64,000 bases of DNA, taken from the NCBI GenBank assembly GCA_964568425.1, contig CAZMPO010000007.1:1-64000 (forward strand), given 5' to 3'. Under the pieces are notes generated by a model, which was given only the letters and a program-made list of their open reading frames with translations, searched no databases and was not told the DNA's origin. The translations under genes were made by a program, and so were the position numbers. The number at the start of each line of letters is the position of its first letter. Position 1 is the stretch's first letter. Positions 729 to 16,805 of the stretch are shown here, piece after piece. This DNA is from an uncultured Lachnospiraceae bacterium (lineage in GTDB: Bacteria > Bacillota > Clostridia > Oscillospirales > CAG-272).

Positions 729-1109
729 TCATCTTCTGCAGTTATTATCTACTACCTCATAGAAGAATCTTTTCTTTTCGTTTTCTGTTAATCTCTCATA
801 TCCGTATAATAGTATACGGGTTTGTATTTCGTTAACTGTCTTCTTGCCAAGATTACGGATTCGAGACAGTTCCTCTCTTCTTATGCAGTCGATAATGTCA
901 CCGATCGTAAACAATCCGGCACGTTTCAAAGCATTCATCGCTCTTACCGAAAATTCGATGTTATCCACCCCGGTATCGCAAGCCTTTTTGCTAAACGGAA
1001 CATTCACTTTCACACTCTTTCCGAATGCTCCATAAAGTGTGGGGATCAGTCCGTTTCCATTTGCCGATTTGTACAGTTCGATTACAACTTCATCTTTTCT
1101 CATTTGCAT
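729..1109 (-). CDS. RNA polymerase alpha-subunit C-terminal-domain-like (HhH) protein
   Basis: Segment NALKRAGLFTIGDII...ELSRIRNLGKKTVNEI resembles the alpha-CTD helix-hairpin-helix of RpoA; standalone 126 aa. Confidence 0.5.
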   Translation of the reverse strand: MQMRKDEVVIELYKSANGNGLIPTLYGAFGKSVKVNVPFSKKACDTGVDNIEFSVRAMNALKRAGLFTIGDIIDCIRREELSRIRNLGKKTVNEIQTRILLYGYERLTENEKKRFFYEVVDNNCRR

Positions 1110-1703: not shown

Positions 1704-2720
1704 TCATATTGTTGCAAATTGCACATTGTAATCGCTGTCAATATTCGTATTGCAATTAGATGGATCATTGCACCACACTTCTGCTGCCCTCTCACACATT
1801 TTCTCAATATAATCTCTGCGTTTCAACGTATCAAGCCACTCTGTCGGGATGTCATCATAACCGTAGAGCGCACCTGCAAGACCACCCGCAACAGCAGCAA
1901 CAGTATCGGAGTCATCACCGAGATTGACCGCCTTTAATACACAATCTTTATAGTTATCCGTGGTAAGTAGACACCACACCGCCCCTTCAAGAGTATCTAC
2001 CACATAACCTGTGCTTTTGATATCATCGCATTGCAATTCAACAAAACTGTCCGCAAACAATCTTTGATAGTGATGGTACTCGGTACTATTTACATATCGA
2101 CACTTCGCCATGTTCAATGCAAGCTTGATGGATTCTTTGCTTGGTACATCAAGCAAATGAAACAGAATCAGCGCATAGATCTTACAGCAGAGCCTTGAGC
2201 GTTCGTGCGCGTGAGTTAAAGCAGATGCTTTTTCAATTATCGCTTCCCACTCGGATCTTACTTTTCGATTACACCAAGCTATCAAAGCAAACGGATGAAT
2301 GCGCATCAAAGAGCCGTTGCCATTGGAACGTTCTCCCGTTAATCCGCATTCCTCGACGGGCTTGTGATATGCAAAATAGTTGTCGATGGCATAGCTGCAA
2401 GTGTTGCCGACATCGAACATTTCGCCCGTCGGCGTGTACTCGTCATCATAATACCACTCGCCAAACTTAACCATTATATCATCGAAATCCACCTTGCCAC
2501 TCGCAAGGCTATCGAGTGCGGCAAGCGACATACTTGTGTCATCCGACCAAGATCCCGCAGGATAAGGATATGTGCCGTAGCCGACCATATCCGTAACCGG
2601 CTTTGCGGCAAGTTCATCCCTCTCGCAAAACTCTACGGGCACACCGAGTGCATCGCCGATCGCATGACCAAGCATTACGGCTTTTATTTTTTGTTTTATC
2701 TTATTCATACTTACCACCAT
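1704..2720 (-). CDS. ADP-ribosylglycohydrolase family protein (DraG/ARH-like)
   Basis: Motifs GHAIGDALGVPVEF, GSWSDDTSM, GNGSLMR, GDDSDTVAAVAGGLAGALYG typical of the ADP-ribosylglycohydrolase fold; alternative start at 2708. Confidence 0.85.
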   Translation of the reverse strand: MVVSMNKIKQKIKAVMLGHAIGDALGVPVEFCERDELAAKPVTDMVGYGTYPYPAGSWSDDTSMSLAALDSLASGKVDFDDIMVKFGEWYYDDEYTPTGEMFDVGNTCSYAIDNYFAYHKPVEECGLTGERSNGNGSLMRIHPFALIAWCNRKVRSEWEAIIEKASALTHAHERSRLCCKIYALILFHLLDVPSKESIKLALNMAKCRYVNSTEYHHYQRLFADSFVELQCDDIKSTGYVVDTLEGAVWCLLTTDNYKDCVLKAVNLGDDSDTVAAVAGGLAGALYGYDDIPTEWLDTLKRRDYIEKMCERAAEVWCNDPSNCNTNIDSDYNVQFATI

Positions 2721-3098: not shown

Positions 3099-3739
3099 TT
3101 AGGCTTTGTCGTCATCTTCCTCGAGATACTTTTCAAGGTCCATCGCATCGGCTTGACAAGCTCTGACCGCTGTGATTGCTTCGCTCATTGCATAATAACT
3201 CCTGCCAACTCCTTCCTTGGTTTGACGGTAATTCGCGGCACGTTCACGGCGAATGCCAATGTTCTCGGCAGTTTCAACGGCATCAATGTTAGCCGCAAGA
3301 AAGATAAACTCCCAACCGTATTTCTCTGTCTGTCGTTTAATTTTTGCCTTGATCTCCGCACTTGAATAGTGGTGGCTTCATTCTCCATTCCATCGGTTGT
3401 AATAATGAAGATGGTATGCTCGGGAACGTCCTCGGGGCGCGCGTACTTATGTATGTTTCCAATATGATGGATAGCACCGCCGATTGCATCGAGAAGTGCC
3501 GTGCAACCGCGCACTTGATAATCGTTTCGTGTCATCGGCTTGATTTCGGATATATCCACTCTGTCGTGGATTACCTCGCTGTAATTATCGAAAAGCACGG
3601 TGGAAACGAAAACCTTGCCTTCCTGTTCCTTCTGATTTTCAATAGTAGAATTGAAGCCGCCGATGGTGTCAGCCTCGAAGCCGGACATAGAGCCGCTTCT
3701 GTCAAGGATAAATACGAGTTCAGTAATGTTGTTTTTCAT
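3099..3739 (-). pseudogene. vWA (von Willebrand factor A) domain protein with apparent frameshift near 3355-3365
   Basis: N-terminal MIDAS motif LVFILDRSGSMSG and ...IFIITTDGMENE. After about 3360 the ORF runs on as low-complexity read-through, while the -1/+1 frame continues with a conserved-looking tail AEIKAKIKRQTEKYGWEFIFLAANIDAVETAENIGIRRERAANY... ending at a TAA around 3099-3101. Confidence 0.6.
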
Positions 3740-3816: not shown

Positions 3817-4182
3817 TTATTTAATCAATCTTGTATTCCATTCAGTTTCCTTGAAACCAACAAGTACAAAATCATCACCAATAAGCAACGGACGTTTCAC
3901 AAGCATGCCGTCACTTGCAAGAAGTTTCAATATTTTGTCCTCGGTCATAGTGGAAATCTTATTTTTAAGGTCAAGGGACTTATAGAGCAATCCACTTGTA
4001 TTAAAGAACTTTTTGAGTGGTAATCCGCTTTTCTTATGCCATTCCGTTAACTCATCGAGTGTGGGATTATCGAGCTTAATATCTCTAAACTCATATTCAA
4101 TTTGATTATCGTCGAGCCACTTTCTTGCCTTTTGACAAGTGGTACACTTGGTGTAACATATAAATTTAATCATAGTTCTCAA
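3817..4182 (-). CDS. ArsC/Spx family protein (thioredoxin-fold, CxxC)
   Basis: N-terminal CTTC redox motif and overall ArsC/Spx/YffB-like length and pattern; ATGA overlap with the upstream Macro gene. Confidence 0.7.
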   Translation of the reverse strand: MRTMIKFICYTKCTTCQKARKWLDDNQIEYEFRDIKLDNPTLDELTEWHKKSGLPLKKFFNTSGLLYKSLDLKNKISTMTEDKILKLLASDGMLVKRPLLIGDDFVLVGFKETEWNTRLIK

Positions 4183-5207
4183 ACTCCTAACAGTTGTTGA
4201 TCAAACTCAAACAACGCTTCATTGATTTCAAAAATATCATAATTGCCGTTATGGATAAAGTATCTAATAATCTTATCAAACACCTTGCTCCTTGACAAAG
4301 TAAATCCTGCGGTTGCAAGCAATTCTTGTGTTGTATCCATATCAAGCTGCAAGGAAATTGCAAAGGCAATCACGGTTTGCTTTGACGGCTTGTAGTCTTT
4401 ATTGCTCTTGATTTTAGAGAAGGTTCGCTTGTCCACGTTTGCCTTCTTGTAGCATTCTACATCGGTCATACCGCTTTCGCCAATGAGGTCAAAAAGCATT
4501 TTCCCGAAGCTTCTGTCCATCTGCTTCATATACTCACGTAAGGATTTACCCGCAGCGGAACTCGTTTCCCGTTTACGCGGCATCATAGCATCGGCACACA
4601 TAGGTGCTTGGATACACTTTGCCATTGGCATCTCATCTACGCTACTGTCAAACGCCTCATAGAAATCTTCATCGTGCTCGTCTACGTATTCATCATTGAT
4701 AAACTCTTGAATATCACTAAAGAGCTTCTGGCTGAAGGAATACGATTCCTTATCGAACACGCAAAGATAAACTGTCAATTCGTGGTCAAACAGAAATTCC
4801 GTAATCGTTTGAATAGCGAATTTGAGGACTTGATCCTTCGGGTATCCGTAAACGCCCGAACTAATCAGAGGGAAAGCAACCGAATGGCAACCGCTTTTCA
4901 CAGCAAGCTTTAACGATTCAATATAGCAAGATCGTAATATAATACTCTCGCCAACCAAACCGCCGCGCCATACGGGACCGGAAGTATGAATCACGTACTT
5001 GCAGGGCAAGCCGTATGCACCCGACAACTTTGCTTGACCAAGCCCAAGCGGAGCAAGCTTGGCGCATTCCGCGTCAAGCTCTGCTCCTGCGATGGTATGT
5101 ATAGCGAGATCTACGCCACTATAACCGACCATTTCTTCATTGGTCGTGTTTACAATGGCATCCACTCGCATTTTCGTGATGTCTTGTCTGATAATTTGTA
5201 GTGGCAA
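4179..5207 (-). CDS. Macro domain protein (ADP-ribose binding/hydrolysing) with C-terminal XRE-like HTH domain
   Basis: Macro motifs VDAIVNTTNEEM, GVDLAIH, YVIHTSGPVW, AFPLISSGVYGYP; C-terminal ~120 aa with HTH-like segment MTDVECYKKANVDKRTFSKIKSN. Confidence 0.8.
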   Translation of the reverse strand: MPLQIIRQDITKMRVDAIVNTTNEEMVGYSGVDLAIHTIAGAELDAECAKLAPLGLGQAKLSGAYGLPCKYVIHTSGPVWRGGLVGESIILRSCYIESLKLAVKSGCHSVAFPLISSGVYGYPKDQVLKFAIQTITEFLFDHELTVYLCVFDKESYSFSQKLFSDIQEFINDEYVDEHDEDFYEAFDSSVDEMPMAKCIQAPMCADAMMPRKRETSSAAGKSLREYMKQMDRSFGKMLFDLIGESGMTDVECYKKANVDKRTFSKIKSNKDYKPSKQTVIAFAISLQLDMDTTQELLATAGFTLSRSKVFDKIIRYFIHNGNYDIFEINEALFEFDQQLLGV

Positions 5208-5217
5208 TCAATTCACC

Positions 5218-8200
5218 TCACTCTTTGTCGGATTTCAAAATTTCTTGTATCTCCGCTATATGCGTTTGTCCGAAAATAATATCGTCATTTCCAATTCTAA
5301 CGACAATAGGGTGATTTACATTGGCATCAGTGCGCAAAATTTCATTATGGAACTGTTCTCGAATGCTATCATTCTCGCGAAGCTCCTCAAAATGCTTGCT
5401 ACATACTAAGCATAGCGCAATGCCGCACTCGTGCCAATAAAACTTAGGTGCTTTAAGTATATTGTTGACTTCCATATACTTAACATCTTTGGCTTCTCGG
5501 CACATTTGGCAAACGCAATATCCGGCTTCGGGTTGGTATCTTCTTAATGCAAGAGCACGAATATCGTGATTGTCAATCAAAAATTCGTTGCCTCTACCAT
5601 TTTGCGGCACTCCATAAGAAACAATACGTTCAACCGGTCGCTTTTCGATTTTGATACAATTGTTTAGAACATCTTGCATATGCCGTCTAAAATTGAACTG
5701 ATTGGGAATGGGCTGATTAAGTACGCTTTTATCATAATCAATCGTTGTCGCCGTTAATCCACCCAAACGATATTCCGTAATCAGCTCGGGAGCTATGAAG
5801 CCCGCTCTTTTACATCTCTCCAAAATCTCAAAGCCGTTTTGCATATGCTCATCTTGCAATGATTCAATATCTTCATCGGTCAAATCATCTTCGACATCCA
5901 AATCATCGTAATGAACCTCGGTAATGTTTTTGCATCTTATAAATCGCGCAAAGGCTTCGCATTCCTTGCTTGCAATATGAGCAGGAAGCAGTTCTCCGAA
6001 GAAGTATCCTTCTTGCTCGTTGCTTACATATACCTTTCCACGTCGAATTTCGCCAAGCTCATTCTTAAGCGGGATGACATTGGCATTTGCAAAAAGGTCA
6101 TTTTGACAACCGAAAAGCATCTGCTTGTTACCGCTAAATTCAGCCAACAAATAGGCATACAATCGAGCATTCTCCATTGTTCTGATGTTTTCCATTAGCT
6201 TTTCACGATAATTTGCTAATTCAATCTGTCCTGTCAGCTCACTTATATCCTCGCCAAATATACCTTCGCATACCTTTTTCTCTAACAAGTGCGTAGCAAG
6301 AATATAGCAATTTGAAGATGAAATCGTACAGTTAGGCTTTATATACAGTCGATCCTCACATTCATCCCAACTAACATATCGGATAACACCTTTTTGCTCT
6401 GCATAAACAGGAACGATCTCTAACTCGCGCAGCATAGATTGCTCATTATCCAAATCATCGCTATGCTCATACAAGTAAGAGAACATCAATTTCCTAAATT
6501 CATCGTCGGTAATGTTTGCCTCGTAAACGCGTCTTAAAGCGCATACTACGCCGTGAACATTCATTACACCAACGCTTAATGCATTCAATTCAGCCTCATA
6601 TTGCTTTTCCTTTGCCTTGACTATTTCGCTCAACGACCTTCCTATATTCTGATTACCATCTAAACAGTAGCTTAACACATCGGGAATGCGAACCACTCGT
6701 GTATCGGAAGGTTTAGCAAGAATCGTTGAATTATAAGTTTGTAAGAATGTAGAGCGTCTGAGCTTTGAAAGCAGATCAATTTTATTCAAGCTATCCTCAG
6801 AGAAAATATCCGTCGAATATGTAGTGCCTTCTCTCTTGATATGCAAGAAGCGAAGCACGTCAATACCTTCGCTCTTTGCCAAGGTTTCGATAGCTGTTTG
6901 GATTGCAACATATACCTCAGCAGTTACATAATCATTCCAACGATTATTTATTAAATGATCGCGCGAGGTTGTCAACTCAAACGGAGCATCGATAATCATA
7001 GGAACTCTTATTTTCACCTGCGTAGGCAATCCCGCATACAAATAGCAGTTGTTGGCTTCTTTTCCCGATTGGATATAGCAAACTACCTTCTGCTTTTTGT
7101 CTATACGACGCTGCTGATTTTCGCGTTCAGAAACAATAGAATTATCCGATACCTCAAAGCAATGTGTTACGATCTTGTATTCATAGACCTTATCATTCAC
7201 CTTGATACATCGAATGTTTCCGTCATCTTCGATGCGAATTTCAAAATCACCCAACTTTAAGTAGCGCAACTTTCGTAAACAAAGACACAAGCGCAGAACC
7301 TTTTCCTCCGTAAAGAAGTCCTTTTTTAACGGCTTTTTCAATTCAAAGGTCATTCTCGTGCCTTGGAATGGCTCTTTTTTATCAGAGGGCAACACGGGAA
7401 TGGTCGGTGCTTTATCAGCCAACATAAAACGAAAATGTCCGCTATGAATATAGACCTTGCTTGCAACCGCAAATACCGCTTTGAATCCAACGCCCTTTTC
7501 TCCGATTTCAGGCATTTTTCTGTCAGAAACAAGTATTTGCTTTTTCGTGGATTCTCCAATTGACGTAATTGCTCTAACGTTTTCACGAGTAAATCCTATT
7601 TCATTGTATCGAGTGAATATTTTAGAAAAGTCATCGGATACAGTTAAAACAAAACTTGGCTTAACACCTTCTGCATAAGAGCAGTCATCCGCATTTTGTA
7701 AAAGCTCATTTATGTACCTTTCCGAGTCCATTCCCGCATCATTGATCAGATTGATATACCGCCTATACGCTTCGGGACCTAATGCACTTTGAATCGTCTT
7801 TCTTGTTGCTCGAAGCAACTTCATATACTCAAAAGGCTCCATATCCTCATTCGCGGCATTCAACTGATTTGACGCATTTTTGAATCGCAGGTTCATCGAC
7901 AAGGTACAATTCTTGTCTATCAGTTCGCAGAACTCCGACAATGAAGTAATTCTATGCTGTGCACTTAAAAATAGAATATTATCACACGCAAAGAAAAAGC
8001 GCTCGTTTTCTATCGGCAAATAGCAACACCTATAACCGATTCTTCTAAAGTAAATCCCCGCATTTTTGTTAAAGTCAGATTCATCAAGTCCTAATTCGCC
8101 ATTTTCAACGAATCGAACATCTTGAATATCAAGAGATTGAATATTTGCTTGAAGCGAAGGCAACTGCATCTTTTTGATCTGTTCGGTAAAGTGCTTTTGA

Positions 8201-9942
8201 AAAGCCGACAAGCATTTTTCATATTTTGCAAATACCGTTATCTGCTCAGCACTAAACGTTTTCTTTCCCATAGCTTCAATCATCTTATCAAACGAAAACG
8301 ATTCTATGTTTGATAAAACATCAAGGATAGCATCCGAATCCGTAAGTACAGACATTGCTCGGTTAAACAACCGCACATTGACATCTGAAATTGTACTTAT
8401 ACCGGGATTTTTATTTCTTGATCGAGCGTCAGGAAGAAATAGCTCGCGCGTTTCTCCAAGCAACAAATATGTGCTCTCGGGTTGCGGTACATCTTCATTT
8501 GATCGGAACATAAACACCTTTTCAGCCGGCAAGAAATTGTTCTCTACCGTATAGAAAATCGGCAATTCGAAAAGTATTTCGCCCTTAAAAATGTTTTGTT
8601 GCAAACAAATGATCGTGTCCACATCTGCTTCAAATATGTACTTGCTTTTGTAAGGTAGATAGTTAATTATATTCTCCTTTACCTTTCGAGAGAAATCCAT
8701 ATAGGATTCTTTTAGCATAGTAGCAAAGGACGAGCAACTATGCTTAAACCAAGCATTATTGCTTTGGGAATCAACAAACTCTCTTGAGCCGCCAAGTTTA
8801 AACGGGATATGGCAAGCCATAGGCATAGGAACCTTTATCTGCGTAGGCAAAAACGAGTATAACGAACCCATTTTTATAGAATTTTCGTCATACAAAAAAT
8901 CCACAGAGGGAAAAACGATCTGCATATACATTTTCTTTTCTGCAAATGCTGTTTTTGCTCCATAACGCGATACACACATATCTCTGTTATAGATAATCTG
9001 CTTGGTATATCTTGTGCAATCAATTTCTTGGATTATGGGCTTGTCATTTTGACTGTGATAATCGCGCAAATCAACCGACAAATGAACGTCGGTTTCTATT
9101 TGCAATTCCGATCCAAGAACAGGAGCACTTCTTGACACCTTAAATGTTAAACTGCGTAAAGAATCGAAATACAAATGCAGTTTGGTAAGCTTATTTAAGA
9201 ACAGTAGCGGGTTCTGATTAAACAAAGATTCCTTATTGTGATATTTACGAACAAATTCGTCATAAATTCCCTTAACCTTCATTGGTTCAACAAAAAGCGT
9301 TAAGCGCGTTCCGCTAACTTCTTCAAAGTTTTCGTACGCAGGCTCGGGAATGGTAAAATTGTTTTTATACAATTCAAATGAGAATTTACCGCTTTGAATC
9401 AGAACTTTATCCGCTACGCCAAAAACTGATTTGAAACCTATGCCTTTTTCACCGATTTCAACCTTATCCGAGGAAACATTTTTAGCCGCCTCGGCAATAC
9501 CCGTAATGGCAAAGACATTAAATGGAGTAAATCCCGTTTCGTTATATGTCAGAACTATTTTTCCGTTATTGTAATCAGTTTGAACGTCCAATTCAACACG
9601 GCTGTGATCTGCATAATCGCAGTCATCTACGTTTTGAATCAATTCAAACAAAAACCTTAACGGCGTAGAATATACACCATCTTCACCAACCGAAAGAAGG
9701 GATTCAAGCAAGGCGGGATAATTATCACCCTTTAATTTGTCATCCTCTGCAAGAGAGGTGCGAAACAACTTCAAGAGTTCAACATACATCTTATGCTCGT
9801 CAATGCTCGCCAAATCACCAACCGAAAAAGCGCGTAGTGCTTCACGCAAATCGGTCTTTTGGTGATTGTTCATACTTCGAGAGTCGTAATTATGATATTT
9901 TGTTTTTAAGTCGAGTATTTTACTCATTTTCTTACCTCTCAA
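5218..9942 (-). CDS. large protein with two sacsin/NOV-like GHKL (HSP90-like) ATPase modules and Cys-rich C-terminal domain (possibly NOV_C/DUF3883-like)
   Basis: Two Bergerat-fold motif sets: ELIQNVDDCDY...GEKGIGFKSVFGV and ELLQNADDCSY...GEKGVGFKAVFAV. C-terminus has CVCQMC...CGIALCLVC. Start overlaps the upstream helicase gene by 11 nt. Confidence 0.75.
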   Translation of the reverse strand: MRGKKMSKILDLKTKYHNYDSRSMNNHQKTDLREALRAFSVGDLASIDEHKMYVELLKLFRTSLAEDDKLKGDNYPALLESLLSVGEDGVYSTPLRFLFELIQNVDDCDYADHSRVELDVQTDYNNGKIVLTYNETGFTPFNVFAITGIAEAAKNVSSDKVEIGEKGIGFKSVFGVADKVLIQSGKFSFELYKNNFTIPEPAYENFEEVSGTRLTLFVEPMKVKGIYDEFVRKYHNKESLFNQNPLLFLNKLTKLHLYFDSLRSLTFKVSRSAPVLGSELQIETDVHLSVDLRDYHSQNDKPIIQEIDCTRYTKQIIYNRDMCVSRYGAKTAFAEKKMYMQIVFPSVDFLYDENSIKMGSLYSFLPTQIKVPMPMACHIPFKLGGSREFVDSQSNNAWFKHSCSSFATMLKESYMDFSRKVKENIINYLPYKSKYIFEADVDTIICLQQNIFKGEILFELPIFYTVENNFLPAEKVFMFRSNEDVPQPESTYLLLGETRELFLPDARSRNKNPGISTISDVNVRLFNRAMSVLTDSDAILDVLSNIESFSFDKMIEAMGKKTFSAEQITVFAKYEKCLSAFQKHFTEQIKKMQLPSLQANIQSLDIQDVRFVENGELGLDESDFNKNAGIYFRRIGYRCCYLPIENERFFFACDNILFLSAQHRITSLSEFCELIDKNCTLSMNLRFKNASNQLNAANEDMEPFEYMKLLRATRKTIQSALGPEAYRRYINLINDAGMDSERYINELLQNADDCSYAEGVKPSFVLTVSDDFSKIFTRYNEIGFTRENVRAITSIGESTKKQILVSDRKMPEIGEKGVGFKAVFAVASKVYIHSGHFRFMLADKAPTIPVLPSDKKEPFQGTRMTFELKKPLKKDFFTEEKVLRLCLCLRKLRYLKLGDFEIRIEDDGNIRCIKVNDKVYEYKIVTHCFEVSDNSIVSERENQQRRIDKKQKVVCYIQSGKEANNCYLYAGLPTQVKIRVPMIIDAPFELTTSRDHLINNRWNDYVTAEVYVAIQTAIETLAKSEGIDVLRFLHIKREGTTYSTDIFSEDSLNKIDLLSKLRRSTFLQTYNSTILAKPSDTRVVRIPDVLSYCLDGNQNIGRSLSEIVKAKEKQYEAELNALSVGVMNVHGVVCALRRVYEANITDDEFRKLMFSYLYEHSDDLDNEQSMLRELEIVPVYAEQKGVIRYVSWDECEDRLYIKPNCTISSSNCYILATHLLEKKVCEGIFGEDISELTGQIELANYREKLMENIRTMENARLYAYLLAEFSGNKQMLFGCQNDLFANANVIPLKNELGEIRRGKVYVSNEQEGYFFGELLPAHIASKECEAFARFIRCKNITEVHYDDLDVEDDLTDEDIESLQDEHMQNGFEILERCKRAGFIAPELITEYRLGGLTATTIDYDKSVLNQPIPNQFNFRRHMQDVLNNCIKIEKRPVERIVSYGVPQNGRGNEFLIDNHDIRALALRRYQPEAGYCVCQMCREAKDVKYMEVNNILKAPKFYWHECGIALCLVCSKHFEELRENDSIREQFHNEILRTDANVNHPIVVRIGNDDIIFGQTHIAEIQEILKSDKE

Positions 9943-12900
9943 TAGTCAGAACACCGTTTGCAATCAACGATGTATGAATATCTGCTTGTCCTGCTTTTTT
10001 CTTGATGGAGGCTACCTTTGCCTCGTATGCTTCGGTTGCACCGTCAAGCATAGATTGGTACATACGAATCAAGTTCATTTCTACCGCATTGTCAATCTGT
10101 GTTTCAAGACTTACCTTGCGATTGATATAGTTGTTGCGGATGCTTTCAAGCTTATAGTTCGCCATTGTATCAACCGACTCTTGGTGCTTCTTGCGCTCCG
10201 CAAACAAAGCAACGATCTGTTTTTCTTCAAGCTTGCCCCAAGCACTCGCATTGATGCTTGGTATCGTACGTGCTTCTTCTGCAGTTTGGAGAATTTCTGT
10301 CAATTCCGCTGCAACCACATCATTTTCACATACTGGTACAATCTTGAAACATGGATTGAGTCCTATGTAGTTCCAAGCATAAACCGAGAAATGATATGTG
10401 CCCGCCGGCAAAAAATCGGAACTGTATCTTAAATTGATATACGAGGTTTGATTTGTGGCGTAATACTGCGCAGCTTGTCTTACAAGAGGATGTACTGCCG
10501 TAATAAAAAACGCTTTTCTATCTTTTTCTGCGGCTTCCGAGTCAAACGTAATCGCATGATTGGGGTTTTTATCCTTCAAATAGTTATCCCAATCCCTCTT
10601 TGTAGAGGAACGAATGGTAGAAAGCTTCTTGAAATCTTCTCTCAGTGCTTCACGGGCAAGCTTATTCAAACGCAGAGTTTTTATCTCGGATTCGCCCAAA
10701 ATGTAATTACCAACGCCAAGACGGTCATTCAAGTATCTTGTAACCAAATACTGCAATCCCGTCGGACTCAACCAAGGGCTTTCCGCTTCTTGGATTTCTT
10801 GGGAAGTGTGGTATCCCGAAAGGTCAAAGCCAAACAGTTCCTTTTCCTCGTCCTCGAGCTTGTTAAGTTCTTGCACACGTCTGACCTCATTATCAGCCAT
10901 CTGTTCAAGCTTGCTTCTGCGTTCTTCATCGGTAAGCGTAGCATTTACCGCAATCTTTTCGACCTGTGCACCGATCTCGCTGAGTATTTCTTCACATTCA
11001 CCGATGCTCTTTTCAAAAATACCAATACGGAGCAGGCAACGCTCATAAATATCCGCATCAACGGTGTTATTCGTGATTACGTTGTAAATGTTTACAACCT
11101 CACTCTTTTGTCCACGACGGTCAATTCTACCGATTCTTTGTTCAATGCGCATCGGGTTCCATGGCAAATCATAGTTAATCATCATATCACAGAACTGATA
11201 GTCAAGACCTTCCGAGCCAACTTCGGTAAAGAGCAGAATATCAATGGCATTTTCATCTTCCTTGGGTAACTCAAATTGCCTACGAAGCTCGTAACGCACA
11301 TCATCCTTAACACTACCGTCAATTTGTTCCACGCGCAATCCTTCATCACGTAGTTTCTTCTTCAAATATGCAAGCGTATGGCGGAAGGTGCTGAACAAAA
11401 TGATTTTATTATTTTCGGCGGTTTGCTTTTCCTTGATGATTTCAAGCACGCTATCGAATTTCGGATCTTCCTCGGGGAGCGAATCTGCCAATTCAAGCAC
11501 GTGACTTGCCATTGCCGAAAGAGTGGAACTATCGTAGTCGCTCAACTTTGCATTATCTACATCGTCCTCCGAGTCGGCTTCAAGCTGCACCAAGCGTCTT
11601 TCAAGAATATCACGCACATAAGGAGCAAGACCAAAGATACAGCTTGCCGCTTGTCTGCGTATAGTGCTCATCATAAAGGGCACAGAGCATACATTGTGAA
11701 GCGTTGAAAGTGCAGCATACTCGAAAGCGAGCAATTCGTTGTGCAATTTTGCCTGCTCGGGCGTGAAATCGCTTGCGATAGTATGCGTTCTTCTGACACA
11801 GAAATCTTGAATATCACGACGCCTTGTGCGGTTTAACATCGTTGCAAAGCCGTGAAGCGACTCTACATCAGAAATCAGCTTTACGCGATCTTCGCGCGAC
11901 AAGTTTTCCTCTGAAAGCTTTTTCAACACTTCTGCATACAAGGGGTTCTTTGCAATTACATTTACACCCCACTGAGTCTGCAATACGCCTTTGAGTTCCT
12001 CGGATGCCGCAAGCTGCCATCCTTCCGCCGCACCACGAATAATATGAGAGCAACGTGAAATATACTCGTTTGGTTTAGACATTGTAACAAACGTGTCTTT
12101 ATCAATTACAACGTCGGGGCGCAATACGTTGAGTAGCGTAAAGAGGTCATTATCACCCGTCTGAAGCGGCGTAGCAGTAAGCATAACGACCGCGTCCGCG
12201 TGCTCACAGAAATACTTAACACACTTGTAGGCAAACGCCTTTTCTTTATCCATACTTCCGTTACGGATATGGTGCGCTTCATCAATGATGACTAAATCAA
12301 AGTGAGGGGCGGGATCTAAGTCAAATAAACCGTACGATTTTCCTTTTTTACCTTCTTCGCCTTGATAGACTCGGCTATCCAAAATAGAATAAGGAATAAT
12401 GGTTTTGTTATAGCGAATAGGCCATTCTCCGTCCCTATCTGTATCCGAAATAATTTGACGAAGCTCTTGTCCCGTAACGGGAACAAATTCCTCATCAAAA
12501 CGCTTCATTTCATTTTCCCATTTGCGTTCCGTTACAAGAGGCTTGGGGCAAATGATAAGCACGTTTTCAAGCTCGTTACGAGCCTCCAACTCTTTGATAA
12601 TCAAGCCTGCTTCAATCGTTTTACCGACACCAACGCTATCCGCAATCAAAATGCGAGGTTCGTCAGCCTTGATAAGCTTCAGCGCAGGTCTGAACTGATA
12701 CGGCACAAAATCAATTCTTGCGGCATTCAAAGAATAAAGATTGCCGGCAGAGGGATTGTTGATTTGATATGCCGTCAAATAACTTTGCAGAGTAGCCAAA
12801 TCAACCCAATTATAGTTTTGGCGTTCTTCAACCAATGCAATCTGTCCCGAATAAAAGGTCTTGGTTTCGCCGTTTACGAAAACTTCGTATTTTTTGATTT

Positions 12901-13522
12901 CGCCAAGATCTGTTACCGAGCATACCATTCCCTTAACATCGGGGTTTCCAATCAAATACACCTTGCTCATAGCCGCAATGTCATCCGTGTTGACGGTTTC
13001 CGTTGAAACGGGTTCCGTAATAGACTCATTTTCTTGCACCGATTCAATTTGGATATTCGAGCCTTGTACCGCTTGCATAAAACGGTCTACATCGTCAAGC
13101 ACATTCAAAGGAGCTTCAAGCCAAGAAAGAAAGGCGTGAAGCGTATTGATGTCATAAACAACGGTATCCTTATCTGCCATTCCGCTACTATAATGCGCCC
13201 AACGATTTCTGACCTTCTGCATTTCTCTTACGCACTCTCGGTCTTTCGTGGGAAGATATGCAAAGTTGCGCATAGCATACCACGACTTATCCGTAATTCT
13301 GAGAAGGGCAGCCAAATCAAAATCCGAAAGATTGCTGTATTGGTTGTTCTCGGCAATCTCTCGCTGATTATAACTCAAATTAGATATGACACATTCCTGC
13401 CACCAATTCTCGGACACCTTGGGAAGCATTTTATCAAGCCAAGATTCCAATAGCTTTGCGGCAGTATGTAAAAATTCATTTATTTTTCCAACAACTTCAA
13501 TATTGTGCATAACGCTCTCCAA
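9932..13522 (-). CDS. Swt1-like HEPN domain fused to SNF2-family (SWI2/SNF2) helicase
   Basis: N-terminal ~140 aa with HEPN Rx4H motif (KVRNRWAHYS). Helicase motifs GVGKTIEAGLI (I), DLVIIDEAHHIRN (II), MLTATPLQ (III), LLFTEVGSEGLDYQ and QRIGRIDRRGQ (V-VI). Confidence 0.85.
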   Translation of the reverse strand: MESVMHNIEVVGKINEFLHTAAKLLESWLDKMLPKVSENWWQECVISNLSYNQREIAENNQYSNLSDFDLAALLRITDKSWYAMRNFAYLPTKDRECVREMQKVRNRWAHYSSGMADKDTVVYDINTLHAFLSWLEAPLNVLDDVDRFMQAVQGSNIQIESVQENESITEPVSTETVNTDDIAAMSKVYLIGNPDVKGMVCSVTDLGEIKKYEVFVNGETKTFYSGQIALVEERQNYNWVDLATLQSYLTAYQINNPSAGNLYSLNAARIDFVPYQFRPALKLIKADEPRILIADSVGVGKTIEAGLIIKELEARNELENVLIICPKPLVTERKWENEMKRFDEEFVPVTGQELRQIISDTDRDGEWPIRYNKTIIPYSILDSRVYQGEEGKKGKSYGLFDLDPAPHFDLVIIDEAHHIRNGSMDKEKAFAYKCVKYFCEHADAVVMLTATPLQTGDNDLFTLLNVLRPDVVIDKDTFVTMSKPNEYISRCSHIIRGAAEGWQLAASEELKGVLQTQWGVNVIAKNPLYAEVLKKLSEENLSREDRVKLISDVESLHGFATMLNRTRRRDIQDFCVRRTHTIASDFTPEQAKLHNELLAFEYAALSTLHNVCSVPFMMSTIRRQAASCIFGLAPYVRDILERRLVQLEADSEDDVDNAKLSDYDSSTLSAMASHVLELADSLPEEDPKFDSVLEIIKEKQTAENNKIILFSTFRHTLAYLKKKLRDEGLRVEQIDGSVKDDVRYELRRQFELPKEDENAIDILLFTEVGSEGLDYQFCDMMINYDLPWNPMRIEQRIGRIDRRGQKSEVVNIYNVITNNTVDADIYERCLLRIGIFEKSIGECEEILSEIGAQVEKIAVNATLTDEERRSKLEQMADNEVRRVQELNKLEDEEKELFGFDLSGYHTSQEIQEAESPWLSPTGLQYLVTRYLNDRLGVGNYILGESEIKTLRLNKLAREALREDFKKLSTIRSSTKRDWDNYLKDKNPNHAITFDSEAAEKDRKAFFITAVHPLVRQAAQYYATNQTSYINLRYSSDFLPAGTYHFSVYAWNYIGLNPCFKIVPVCENDVVAAELTEILQTAEEARTIPSINASAWGKLEEKQIVALFAERKKHQESVDTMANYKLESIRNNYINRKVSLETQIDNAVEMNLIRMYQSMLDGATEAYEAKVASIKKKAGQADIHTSLIANGVLTIER

Positions 13523-13530
13523 TCAAAAGA

Positions 13531-13719
13531 TTATTTCTCAGCTGCATTTCCTGCTTTTACCCAAGCAACAACCTCGGACACCTTAAATTTCCAAAGACGT
13601 CCAACCTTTGAAGCAGGCATATTACGCTTTGCGATCCATACGAGCACGGTATCGCGGCTAACGCCGAGGTGCTCCATGATCTCTTTGAGTGAATACCATC
13701 TTTCCGTTTCGTTAATCAT
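13531..13719 (-). CDS. AlpA/excisionase-family HTH DNA-binding protein
   Basis: 62-aa protein [37 protein letters not shown] typical of the MerR-superfamily HTH_17 (Xis/AlpA); sits 9 nt upstream of the helicase gene. Confidence 0.7.
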
Positions 13720-13749
13720 TTCAATTCTCCTTCGGCAAAAAGATACAAT

Positions 13750-13778
13750 TATTTACTCTATTATACTATAATATCATC
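13750..13778 (-). promoter_or_regulatory. consensus sigma-A-type promoter for the island operon
   Basis: Minus-strand TTGACA, 17-nt spacer, TATAAT; about 30 nt upstream of an AAGGAG RBS and the ATG at 13719. Confidence 0.5.
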
Positions 13779-14154
13779 AATTTGTCAATCAGTTATGATA
13801 GCTTATCGTCGGTTTATAACGGTTTATTCGTAAATGGAAAAGACAGCGATTTTTTCTCCGCCGAGTGCTCATTCAGTTAAGTTTTCAATAGCGATTCGCA
13901 TACCGAGTTTAAGAGCACACTTGAAGATATGAACTGGTTCTTCTATCCTTTCGATATACAATATACACCAAATAGCATGAATTGTCAAGAGGCTGAGAGG
14001 ATTTTTTAAAATTAATTATGGATTTTCCCTTAATTTGTAAAAGTACACCTTTCAAAACGGTAGAAAATGGTTTTGGGTACGCTTTGAACATACATAGAGT
14101 TTTATCTTCAAGAATTGAACGCAAAACAAGCGATAAACGGGAGGAATGCTGAAA

Positions 14155-15453
14155 ATGGCTATTGTTGAGGTTATAAAATACAATGGTAAACCCGATGTAT
14201 TTGCGTGGAAGTACCCTAGCGAGGAACTTGGAACATGGACGCAACTGATTGTAAATGAATCTCAAGAAGCAGTTCTTGTAAAAAGCGGCAATGTTCTCGA
14301 TGTGTTTGGTAGCGGACGACATACGCTCGATACAGCAAACATTCCCATTCTGAGCAAAATAATCAATCTTCCGTTTGGAGGAAGAAGTCCGTTTACAGCC
14401 GAGGTATGGTACATCAATAAGGGCTACAATCTAGATATTAAATGGGGAACACCCACTCCAATTCAAATTCAAGACCCCAAATATGGTATTTTTGCTCCGG
14501 TCTGCTCAAATGGTGCATTCGGCATACATGTCTCGGACTCGAAAAAATTTTTAATAAAGCTCGTGACAACGATGCCAACATTCGATACCAATACCATTAC
14601 AAAATACTTCAGAAGCCTTTTTGTAACAAAAGTAAAGGATGCGATCTCTGCGTATTTGGTACATAAGCAGATAAGCATTTTGGAAATAAACGCATACATT
14701 GACGAGCTGTCTCAGCACATGAAGGAAAGAATTCAGCCTGCAATGGATGATTATGGTATCGAGCTCATATCCTTCTATGTAAACGAGATAAGCGTGCCCG
14801 AAGACGATACAGCTGTCCAGAAACTGAAAGATGCCCTTTCAAAGAGAGCGGAGATGAATATTATTGGCTATAGTTATCAGCAAGAACGTTCTTTTGATAC
14901 CCTCGAAGGTGCCGCGAAGAACAGCGGTTCAGCCGGAGCTCCGCTTATGAGTGCTGGACTGGGAATTGGAATGGGATTTGGCATGGGACGAGGCGTTGGA
15001 AAAGGATTTGGTAACATGGCACAAGAAATTCAAGTAAACAGCTCCAATGAAAGCACTAAGGAATGCCCAAAATGCTACACGCAGATCCAGCAAAATCAAA
15101 GATTTTGCGGATACTGCGGATATGATACCGAAAAGAAGTCAAAGAAATCTGCCTCTTTGATCTGTTCTTTTTGCAATCACATAATAACTGAGACAACCAA
15201 ATTTTGCCCCGAATGTGGAAGAAAGATCGACCATTGCCCAAATTGCGGAAGTGATATGGCAGATAACGCAACAAAGTGCAACAGTTGCGGCTATGAAAAA
15301 CTGCCGATTTGTCCCAAGTGTGGTGCCGAAATCTCAAGCAAATCTAAATTCTGTCCCGAATGCGGGGCTGTTCTGACAAAATGTTGCCCGAAATGCAATT
15401 CACCAATTGATGGTGTCAAGAAATTCTGCCCTGAATGCGGCGAAAAACTGTAA
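14155..15453 (+). CDS. SPFH/band-7 domain protein (COG4260-like) with five C-terminal zinc-ribbon repeats
   Basis: N-terminal MAIVEVIKYNGKPDVFAWKYP... SPFH-like core; C-terminal repeats CPKC/CPEC...CxxC x5; the ORF could also start at 14146. Confidence 0.65.
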   Translation: MAIVEVIKYNGKPDVFAWKYPSEELGTWTQLIVNESQEAVLVKSGNVLDVFGSGRHTLDTANIPILSKIINLPFGGRSPFTAEVWYINKGYNLDIKWGTPTPIQIQDPKYGIFAPVCSNGAFGIHVSDSKKFLIKLVTTMPTFDTNTITKYFRSLFVTKVKDAISAYLVHKQISILEINAYIDELSQHMKERIQPAMDDYGIELISFYVNEISVPEDDTAVQKLKDALSKRAEMNIIGYSYQQERSFDTLEGAAKNSGSAGAPLMSAGLGIGMGFGMGRGVGKGFGNMAQEIQVNSSNESTKECPKCYTQIQQNQRFCGYCGYDTEKKSKKSASLICSFCNHIITETTKFCPECGRKIDHCPNCGSDMADNATKCNSCGYEKLPICPKCGAEISSKSKFCPECGAVLTKCCPKCNSPIDGVKKFCPECGEKL

Positions 15454-15467
15454 AGGAGCATGTACAA

Positions 15468-16166
15468 ATGAGCAGAAGAATTAAAATGTTTTTGGCAAGC
15501 GGTGTTACCGTGCTTCTTGCCACGGTGATCATCTCACTGATCTGTATAGATGAGTGGCACGGGTTAACGAATTGGGCGTTTGTCACGATGTTGTGGTCAG
15601 AAATTGTATTGTTCGGTGGTTCGATCTTTATAGAATGGTTTGCGGAAAGATCCAAACAGATTTTTGCAAGGTCACTGCTTTATTCTGTTATTATAACCTA
15701 TTCAACGATCAACTTTTTGATTTCCGTTTTTTACATGATATTGTTGAAAGAAGCGGCTACCTCTTTTACCGTTATGCAAGTGATCATGTTAGCAAGTGCA
15801 TCGATAGGCATTGCCGTTTCGCTGGGGGTGAGCAAAGGCGTACAAAAATCAAACATTCGCACCGCAAAGGCGGTTGCAAATACCGAGGCGATGATTGAAC
15901 GACTGAACAAATTAGCTCTTCGTCCGGAATGTGAGCATTTTGTCTCATCCCTAAAAAAACTGAGTGATGATTTGCGATTTACTGACATTTCAAAAGTCGT
16001 TGCAGAGGACAGTAAAATTTCCAATGCTATCTCTGTCATCGAAATTGAGACCGACAGTACAGACGGATTTGACAATAAAAAAATCGAAGCAGCGTTGATT
16101 CGCCTTAATTCGCTGATCTTACAAAGAAAAGTTTCGGTAAGCACAGCCAATAAAGGTAAAATTTAA
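15468..16166 (+). CDS. membrane protein (3-4 TM helices) of unknown function
   Basis: AGGAG RBS then ATG at 15468; hydrophobic N-terminal half and coiled/charged C-terminal half. Confidence 0.45.
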   Translation: MSRRIKMFLASGVTVLLATVIISLICIDEWHGLTNWAFVTMLWSEIVLFGGSIFIEWFAERSKQIFARSLLYSVIITYSTINFLISVFYMILLKEAATSFTVMQVIMLASASIGIAVSLGVSKGVQKSNIRTAKAVANTEAMIERLNKLALRPECEHFVSSLKKLSDDLRFTDISKVVAEDSKISNAISVIEIETDSTDGFDNKKIEAALIRLNSLILQRKVSVSTANKGKI

Positions 16167-16190: not shown

Positions 16191-16805
16191 ATGAACAAAT
16201 CCAAAGTAGCAATAGCATTAACTAAAACAGTCAGCGTCGTGCAAATGACGATCGGCGTTTTTTTGGTATTCATGTTTAGCATTTGTGCAATTGTATGTTT
16301 ATTAGACAAAGAATTTATGGAAGATTCGGGCGTAAGTTTCTTGATATGCTGCTTAGTTATAGTTGCGTTTGCCGTTTGGCTTATAATTCTTTCCGCGAAA
16401 AAAGCTGCGTTAATAAACAAATTCAAAAAATATGTTGCGGCTGTTTCCAACGACCCTAACGGCTATATTCCCGACATCGCCGCTTCATTAGGTGCATCCG
16501 AAAACGAAGTTAAGAAAAACCTTGAACTAATGATCAAGAAAAACTTTTTTGCAAATGCGTTTGTTGATCAAAATTCTAATTGCATTGTGATTGCGAACAG
16601 ACAAAGTTTCGCTGCTAATAAAGCCTCCCAACCGCAGACACAGTCAGCCGCATATGCTCCACCCCGAGTTGCTTTGCAGACAGCAGAGATGGTAACCATC
16701 AAGTGTAAAGGCTGCGGCGGCATTAACACAATACCAAAAGGTGTAGTTGTTGAGTGTGATTATTGCGGGTCCTCTATTAAAGGTGAGCAAAAACAAGTTT
16801 TTTAA
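16191..16805 (+). CDS. membrane protein with C-terminal zinc ribbon
   Basis: Two TM helices N-terminal; C-terminal CKGCGG...CDYCG zinc ribbon. Confidence 0.45.
   Translation: MNKSKVAIALTKTVSVVQMTIGVFLVFMFSICAIVCLLDKEFMEDSGVSFLICCLVIVAFAVWLIILSAKKAALINKFKKYVAAVSNDPNGYIPDIAASLGASENEVKKNLELMIKKNFFANAFVDQNSNCIVIANRQSFAANKASQPQTQSAAYAPPRVALQTAEMVTIKCKGCGGINTIPKGVVVECDYCGSSIKGEQKQVF

Follow-up and report, generated by a model that had tools for sequence, protein, structure and literature searches.

A giant gene and its helicase neighbor in a low-GC island

In this study, we analyzed a stretch of 64,000 nucleotides from an uncultured Lachnospiraceae bacterium (positions 1 to 64,000 of contig CAZMPO010000007.1, assembly GCA_964568425.1; hereafter the window), in which one minus-strand open reading frame (ORF) encodes a giant protein with two predicted sacsin/Hsp90-type ATPase modules (Table 1). 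Based on the starts of homologues, the ATG at position 9927 (M6) is the probable start, which results in a product of 1569 amino acids (aa). The gene is located in a low-GC island covering roughly 1-16 kb of the window (GC 0.38-0.44 compared to about 0.52 elsewhere) and belongs to a minus-strand gene string in the order helicase, giant gene, macro-domain gene and ArsC-family gene (3817-4182). The stop codon of the helicase gene lies 4 nt ahead of the ATG of the giant gene. From the evidence presented below, we consider it reasonably probable that the giant ORF takes second place in a conserved defense cassette of two genes, in which a HEPN_Swt1-SNF2 helicase is followed by a sacsin/Hsp90-type ATPase resembling TmtA, the protein of the Tiamat defense system.

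Table 1. Coordinates of the giant gene, its partner and associated features in the window
Feature	Position	Strand	Size or residues	Remarks
Giant protein, two-module, sacsin/Hsp90-type (predicted)	5218-9942	minus	1574 aa from TTG	
Module 1: Bergerat ATPase and Hsp90-like middle domain (predicted)	8623-9690	minus	aa 85-440	R387 in SRE motif
Inter-module linker	7756-8622	minus	aa 441-729	Mixed alpha/beta, no known family
Module 2: second ATPase and middle domain (predicted)	6763-7755	minus	aa 730-1060	R994 in SRD motif
Family-specific region before the tail	5623-6762	minus	aa 1061-1440	Mostly helical; fold search without significant match
C-terminal Cys-rich domain	5221-5622	minus	aa 1441-1574	CxxC...CxxC treble-clef-like finger and terminal motif
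Partner: HEPN_Swt1 and SNF2-family helicase, DrmD/RapA-like	9932-13522	minus	1196 aa	Pfam, PADLOC, NCBIfam
HEPN_Swt1 domain of the partner	13163-13450	minus	aa 25-120	R-x4-H motif RNRWAH at aa 105-110 (nt 13193-13210)
SNF2 ATPase core of the partner	11111-12682	minus	aa 281-804	
Macro-domain protein	4179-5207	minus	342 aa	10 nt downstream of the giant gene; Pfam Macro 1e-34
Promoter-like site TTGACA-17-TATAAT	13760-13788	minus		12/12, consensus match only; about 240 nt upstream of the helicase gene

Two sacsin/Hsp90-type modules in one polypeptide

An earlier inspection of the bare sequence (the original prediction) had pointed out two complete sets of Bergerat motifs about 640 residues apart within the 1574 aa. 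Both sets are present at a spacing of 646 residues (module 1: E100-x3-N104-x-D106-D107 and G164-E-K-G167-I-G169-F170; module 2: E746-x3-N750-x-D752-D753 and G814-E-K-G817-V-G819-F820). In an alignment of 121 family sequences, they are at least 95% conserved, as are the middle-domain arginines R387 and R994 of the S-R-E/D motifs. Based on the resemblance of these motifs and on the correspondence of sacsin R474 to Hsp90 R380 (PMC9880540), both arginines may be equivalent to Hsp90 R380.

The domain annotation and structure modeling suggested along with the original prediction returned sacsin profiles above their curated cutoffs and an Hsp90 fold. Pfam SACS (PF25794; 57.1 bits, cutoff 32.8) and NCBIfam P_loop_sacsin (NF047352; 104.5 bits, cutoff 50) each matched in two stretches. 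Searching the AlphaFold model of aa 6-1200 (pLDDT 84.6, pTM 0.56) against the PDB with Foldseek yielded 418 matches at E<=1e-3, and the best 50 of these 418 all belong to the Hsp90 family (Hsp90, TRAP1, Hsc82, HtpG, GRP94). The Hsp90-family matches reached E 1e-10 and a probability of 1.0 over about 500 columns, corresponding to the N-terminal and middle domains. Two loops of low pLDDT in this model are positioned ahead of the Gly-rich boxes, where ATP lids are expected. At the sequence level, the sole PDB match was lizard sacsin (5v47, E 0.0026).

As judged from profiles and structure prediction, the giant protein comprises two genuine sacsin/Hsp90-type GHKL modules, for which ATP hydrolysis is predicted. 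The explanation that the motifs are chance matches lacking a GHKL fold, which had been named from the outset as a possible refutation, can practically be dismissed in view of the Pfam and NCBIfam profiles, the conservation across 121 sequences, the Hsp90 fold and the internal repeat. Concerning the latter, the halves of the giant protein share 45% identity over 132 aa (E 8e-25) plus a second collinear block, and a profile-profile comparison gave a probability of 100% (E 5e-42).

The regions following the two modules (aa 441-729 and 1061-1440) showed no significant similarity to each other (E 0.086), and a duplication reaching through them was rejected; according to the sequence comparison, the demonstrable duplication is limited to the ATPase and middle domain. 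The arrangement had also been described as mirroring the repeats of sacsin. This comparison is appropriate insofar as sacsin-type modules are repeated; because the similarity between the modules (45% identity) far exceeds their similarity to sacsin (E 0.0026), however, the likeness reflects an independent, lineage-specific duplication in parallel to that of sacsin.

A conserved Cys-rich tail

The giant protein ends in a tail with a cluster of cysteines spanning aa 1476-1514, among which C1478, C1481, C1511 and C1514 are invariant in the family alignment and C1476 reaches a conservation of at least 90%. The most conserved element of the tail is a terminal F-T-x-T-H-L-A-E-I-x-E-I-L motif, which reads F-G-Q-T-H-I-A-E-I-Q-E-I-L in the window protein; the terminal helix of the latter is FTQTHIAEIQEIL. 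In the model of aa 1190-1574 (pLDDT 92), a Cys knuckle, two strands and a helix starting from the second CxxC follow each other in a treble-clef-like order.

With five conserved cysteines, the Zn binding initially proposed for the C-terminus is predicted and very likely. The accompanying suggestion of a NOV_C/DUF3883-like, restriction-endonuclease-like domain did not hold: Pfam searches with the giant protein and 34 family tails gave no such match in the tail, neither to NOV_C/DUF3883 nor to HNH, and a check for a PD-(D/E)xK signature revealed no Pfam match and no restriction-endonuclease fold.

An active HNH nuclease was rejected as well. MAFFT places the tail on the genuine HNH_2 domain of a Halorubrum relative, and the Cys pairs as well as the strand-strand-helix order fit an HNH scaffold. 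However, hhalign against a true HNH tail reached only E 0.07, Pfam detected no HNH domain, and the best Foldseek match of the tail model, the beta-beta-alpha-Me enzyme Hpy99I, was not significant (E 0.24). Furthermore, the catalytic His is not conserved: its position is taken by N1494, a residue shared by at least 95% of the two-module family, and A, V, C or N is found there in a single-module sister group (see below). By sequence and model, the tail looks like a non-catalytic Cys4 treble-clef finger, for which an HNH ancestry is weakly suggested.

Distribution of the family

The giant protein has more than 590 homologues, and the lengths of the best 120 all fall within 1546-1593 aa. The closest genome match is a metagenome-assembled genome (MAG) of an uncultured Ruminococcus (L009, 94% identity). 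An E. coli origin of the region was rejected, as positions 4000-14000 matched none of the complete E. coli genomes in a megablast search. A scan of one genome per species returned 258 relatives, with the two-module form in about 50 Bacillota species; its hosts are found in Oscillospiraceae, Lachnospiraceae, Ruminococcus, Christensenella, Peptococcus, Selenomonas and Phascolarctobacterium. The original prediction had called tandem modules rare in bacteria, which applies in part only, given a two-module family with hundreds of members from roughly 50 Bacillota species. According to hidden Markov models (HMMs) built from the family, the five-part layout of modules, linker, family-specific region and tail (Table 1) is common to every two-module member. 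Some members are longer (P0224, 2128 aa; P0243, 1844 aa; P0210, 1728 aa) and show linker insertions or an N-terminal extension.

Identity decreases to 25-30% in the single-module proteins of bacilli, proteobacteria and archaea. The Cys tail was found only in proteins with sacsin-type modules: a search with the tail profile retrieved 375 cluster representatives, and all matches longer than 900 aa also have such modules. The matches include the single-module sister group mentioned above, whose members (about 1030-1290 aa) have the same tail and the same partner and are commoner than the two-module form.

Near-obligate linkage to a HEPN-SNF2 helicase

The partner protein combines a HEPN_Swt1 domain (Pfam, 8e-10) with an SNF2-rel_dom (1e-17) and a Helicase_C domain (9e-22). 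Among 41 orthologues of the partner, Walker A, DEAH and motif VI show a conservation of 90% or more. These data show that the catalytic residues of the ATPase modules and of the SNF2 motor are under purifying selection.

Next, we investigated how consistently the two genes occur together. In 57 two-module loci, the helicase gene is located immediately upstream of the giant gene in 46 cases, immediately downstream in two and nearby in two more (L026, L060); each of the seven loci in which it was not seen (7/57) runs into a contig end on one or both sides. The two downstream cases, a Clostridium sp. (L034) and a Phascolarctobacterium MAG (L037), show a reversed gene order with the giant gene first. 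Only in L026 is the pair split, namely by a full-length PDC-S68 defense candidate (11682-15440; PADLOC E = 0, positions 5-1219 of 1221). Conversely, a scan anchored on the helicase revealed a sacsin-type gene at most 300 nt downstream in all metagenome loci (80/80), with mostly single-module and few two-module partners. All three sister-group proteins that were inspected singly are also helicase-linked. The genes of a pair are separated by gaps or overlaps of 2-4 nt, and the linkage holds across 33-94% identity and changing flanks. The linkage between the giant gene and the helicase is reciprocal and near-obligate, and the pair is shown to be a conserved two-gene unit on mobile defense loci.

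A further group of proteins from Bacillus, Lysinibacillus, Paenibacillus, Clostridium and Neobacillus (L061-L073; about 1460-1530 aa) is single-module and TmtA-like, lacks a Pfam nuclease and has a different CxxC...C tail. Their genes are located directly downstream of a HEPN-less SNF2 helicase with 29-31% identity to the partner in the window; therefore, the helicase link reaches beyond the clade with the Cys tail.

Relationship to Tiamat

Tiamat with its protein TmtA is reportedly a discovery of Millman et al. from 2022. Neither the word Tiamat nor the domain terms are present in the preprint of Millman et al. Tiamat is a validated anti-phage system, the mechanism of which is listed as unknown (PMC12926258); in the literature, it is treated as a single gene containing PD-(D/E)xK.

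For comparison, we used the PADLOC TmtA models PDLC03964-03972. The giant protein was matched at 3e-64, and both halves align only with the N-terminal ~500 profile positions (aa 79-582 with 28-557 of 1655; aa 739-1179 with 40-502 of 1302), so that about a third of the profile is covered, twice; the first part of the linker, up to aa 582, is still included in these matches. In canonical relatives, the match to the TmtA models extends over 800-1600 positions, and NOV_C or HNH forms the C-terminal end. A solo protein of Variovorax (L076, SACS and NOV_C) aligns end-to-end (23-1649 of 1655, E 1.5e-226) and a Halorubrum protein (L008, SACS and HNH) over positions 27-1335 of 1486 (E 2.8e-170); proteins of Sulfuricurvum (L006) and Halobaculum (L007), both with SACS and NOV_C, match partially over about 600 and 1040 positions, respectively.

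In these canonical proteins, a single module is followed by about 1000 additional profile positions, and the C-terminus is formed by a nuclease of the NOV_C or HNH type. The giant protein resembles them in its sacsin-type N-terminal ATPase and middle-domain module and in its defense-island habitat, but differs in that the module is duplicated, a Cys4 finger takes the place of the nuclease and a HEPN-SNF2 helicase is an obligate neighbor. Some helicase-linked single-module relatives match a TmtA profile almost end-to-end, as exemplified by L074 (SACS only; 5-1151 of 1302, E 2e-148), and the PADLOC TmtA umbrella already takes in some helicase-linked forms such as this one. Overall, the giant protein appears to be a derived, internally duplicated and nuclease-less variant of a Tiamat-like two-gene cassette with a presumed defense function. 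This homology, the obligate helicase partner and the defense-island context had been overlooked in the original prediction.

It could be argued that the giant gene is an ordinary single-gene Tiamat and that the DrmD-like helicase belongs to a separate, co-located defense system. The TmtA match at 3e-64 and the definition of Tiamat as a single gene fit this assumption, and since defense genes cluster in islands, adjacency alone may be coincidence. We nevertheless regard it as improbable: the linkage is reciprocal and near-absolute across 33-94% identity and changing flanks, the genes adjoin each other with gaps or overlaps of 2-4 nt, and the giant protein lacks a NOV_C or HNH nuclease and covers only about a third of TmtA, in two copies.

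Genomic context

The flanks of the pair vary completely and include genes for type I restriction-modification (R-M), GmrSD, McrBC, Vsr, AIPR, AbiEii, a PLD-helicase, relaxases and recombinases as well as prophage genes. In IMG/VR, three contigs carry the giant protein, and the full pair is present on both contigs with flanking sequence. The cassette is carried in defense islands, on mobile elements and on prophage-like contigs of gut and rumen Bacillota, and its patchy distribution and location in low-GC islands are consistent with horizontal transfer.

Pairs of SNF2 and GHKL proteins act in eukaryotic silencing, and it is conceivable that the cassette does not serve immunity but is a mobile-element or housekeeping module for DNA transactions or chromatin-like functions (silencing, replication-conflict resolution or competition between mobile genetic elements, MGEs), or else a proteostasis chaperone. 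The lack of a recognizable DNase, the RapA-like character of the partner and the presence of the cassette on MGEs speak for such a role. With a distribution suggestive of horizontal transfer, low-GC islands, known defense genes as neighbors, homology to a validated anti-phage family, a HEPN RNase domain and no core-genome conservation seen, this explanation has little probability in our view.

Comparison with other known systems

The best profile matches of the partner are DrmD of the DISARM system (PADLOC, 7e-108) and RapA (1.3e-60). In contrast to DISARM DrmD, the partner carries an N-terminal HEPN_Swt1 domain and remains below the NCBIfam cutoff (DISARM_DrmD, 302.5 bits versus 610). No DrmA, DrmB, DrmC or methylase was found within about 10 kb, and membership in DISARM was discarded based on this score and the absence of the other components.

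GHKL ATPases of the MORC/paraMORC type are operonically linked to SF-II helicases, including SWI2/SNF2, and to HNH/REase in R-M-like operons, and a role in ATP-driven DNA looping or clamping was proposed for these systems (Iyer, Abhiman & Aravind 2008, PMC2292703). Here too, a GHKL and S5-like ATPase adjoins an SNF2 helicase on mobile defense loci. Unlike these operons, the present ATPase belongs to the Hsp90/sacsin branch, with exclusively Hsp90 among the best fold matches listed, and its module is duplicated; the cassette contains neither a methylase nor a DNase, and its only nuclease-type domain is the HEPN RNase of the helicase.

We also compared the cassette with plant NO VEIN and with eukaryotic sacsin, which has three Hsp90-like repeat regions along with DnaJ and HEPN. 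Like sacsin, the giant protein harbors repeated sacsin-type Hsp90-like modules in one polypeptide (Pfam SACS), a conserved middle-domain Arg and an association with HEPN, here located on the partner protein. It differs from sacsin in the absence of Ubl and DnaJ domains and in its independent duplication; moreover, the HEPN domain is of the Swt1 type and resides on a separate SNF2 protein, and the context is prokaryotic conflict rather than proteostasis.

Anantharaman et al. 2013 list a HEPN-SWI2/SNF2 fusion, but no sacsin-like partner for it (PMC3710099). No prior description of an SNF2 and sacsin-like pair was found in the searchable literature. Compared to Tiamat-like and GHKL-plus-helicase conflict systems, the cassette is distinguished by its internal duplication, its nuclease loss and its obligate helicase partner.

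A possible mode of action and its alternatives

The following model is drawn by analogy with dimerizing GHKL ATPases and with the GHKL-SF-II-helicase operons of Iyer et al. 2008. An ancestral unit of ATPase and Hsp90-like middle domain would have been duplicated in tandem, and a non-catalytic Cys4 zinc finger would have taken the place of the NOV_C or HNH nuclease at the C-terminus of canonical TmtA. The pair may constitute an ATP-driven anti-phage or anti-plasmid machine with the giant protein as putative sensor or clamp, the two ATPase modules of which would close on each other in cis; this closure would replace the dimerization needed by Hsp90, MutL and MORC ATPases. The zinc finger and the conserved terminal helix may contact nucleic acid or the helicase, the SNF2 motor would translocate on invader DNA and the HEPN RNase domain of the helicase would provide the effector activity in most lineages. 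Going further, we tentatively suggest, at somewhat less than even confidence, that HEPN-SNF2 helicases and nuclease-less sacsin-type proteins form a distinct, undescribed two-gene immune system, which would make up a sizeable part of HMM-called 'Tiamat', and that the duplicated modules act as an intramolecular ATP-gated clamp.

Several points weigh against this model. The partner in the window has retained the R-x4-H dyad of the HEPN domain, whereas 6/41 partner orthologues have lost it (L030, L052, L040, L058, L014 and L029, with replacements such as CNSWVN and ENRWLY), and the whole HEPN domain is absent from the partners in L039 and L068; the SNF2 motifs are intact in all of these proteins. 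Because of these losses, HEPN is not a universal effector, and no nuclease besides HEPN was found in the cassette. It is further debated whether sacsin-type domains bind ATP (PMC9880540). The pairing of modules in cis is modeled on other ATPases, and the pTM of the aa 6-1200 model is 0.56. Finally, Hsp90 and sacsin are protein chaperones, and the sensed ligand could therefore be a protein rather than DNA.

The last point leads to a variant of the defense cassette that senses a phage protein as a chaperone-like 'client', in which ATP-driven remodeling would license the HEPN-SNF2 effector in the manner of abortive infection. It agrees with the closest folds listed, which are all Hsp90-family chaperones and not MutL, MORC or gyrase B, with the chaperone nature of sacsin, and with HEPN RNases being typical abortive-infection effectors (PMC3710099). 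Canonical relatives, however, have this module joined to DNases (NOV_C, HNH), and the giant protein has a zinc finger in place of the DNase. Its obligate partner is moreover a DNA translocase, and about 20% of lineages manage without HEPN. Considering these features, we judge client sensing to be unlikely, though it deserves somewhat more credit than a single-gene Tiamat or a role outside immunity.

Neighboring genes in the island

Among the loci searched, only three carry a macro-domain gene. In the Ruminococcus MAG (L009), it occupies the same position as in the window (94% identity), in L029 it is located about 450 nt downstream (36% identity) and in L038 elsewhere in the locus on the opposite strand. 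The macro-domain gene is an occasional accessory outside the conserved cassette, and a role as core component is ruled out by its presence in these three loci only. A DarG-like reading of its product was rejected after PADLOC gave no match. The part comprising aa 170-342 (4179-4700, minus strand) has no Pfam or PADLOC match, and by eye an HTH-like stretch, MTDVECYKKANVDKRTFSKIK, was noted in the C-terminal half. The stop of the macro-domain gene overlaps the start of the ArsC/glutaredoxin-family gene (3817-4182). An ADP-ribosylglycohydrolase (1704-2720, minus strand; Pfam 1.2e-73) shares the low-GC island with the macro-domain protein, which adds up to two ADP-ribosylation-reversing enzymes.

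The promoter-like site upstream of the helicase gene (Table 1) is a candidate operon promoter, predicted from its consensus match; such sites are not more numerous in the region than expected from shuffled sequence. A tRNA as integration hallmark of the island was not found within 1-30000.

A divergent cluster inside the island starts with an SPFH/Band-7 protein containing five or more zinc ribbons (14146-15453, plus strand), followed by two predicted membrane proteins without a Pfam family (15435-16166 and 16191-16805, plus strand), the second of which has a C-terminal Zn-ribbon-like CxxC pair. The ORF at 3185-3739 (minus strand) has a vWA-like start (VFILDRSGSM), no Pfam match and a C-terminal third that looks out-of-frame, and may be a frameshifted pseudogene. 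A stand-alone protein of 126 aa is encoded at 729-1109 (minus strand); an RNA polymerase alpha-subunit C-terminal domain (7e-16) makes up most of it, and an AsnC-type regulator (1124-1585) is located next to it.

Implications

A large branch of TmtA-like proteins has an SNF2 translocase as obligate partner and no longer contains the nuclease. This leads to a concrete model open to testing, in which an ATP-gated sensor or clamp cooperates with a motor and a HEPN effector. As the same branch suggests, annotation tools may wrongly label a two-gene system as single-gene Tiamat. With its tandem duplication, the giant protein offers a natural experiment on the question whether Hsp90/sacsin-type ATPases depend on the joint action of two ATPase domains. 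Sacsin-type domains are mutated in the human ataxia ARSACS, and the debate on their ATPase activity could be brought closer to an answer by a simple bacterial protein whose catalytic residues are invariant. If the proposed reading is true, repeated Hsp90-like modules and HEPN in a bacterial conflict system would set a precedent in prokaryotes for the way in which domains are combined in eukaryotic sacsin.

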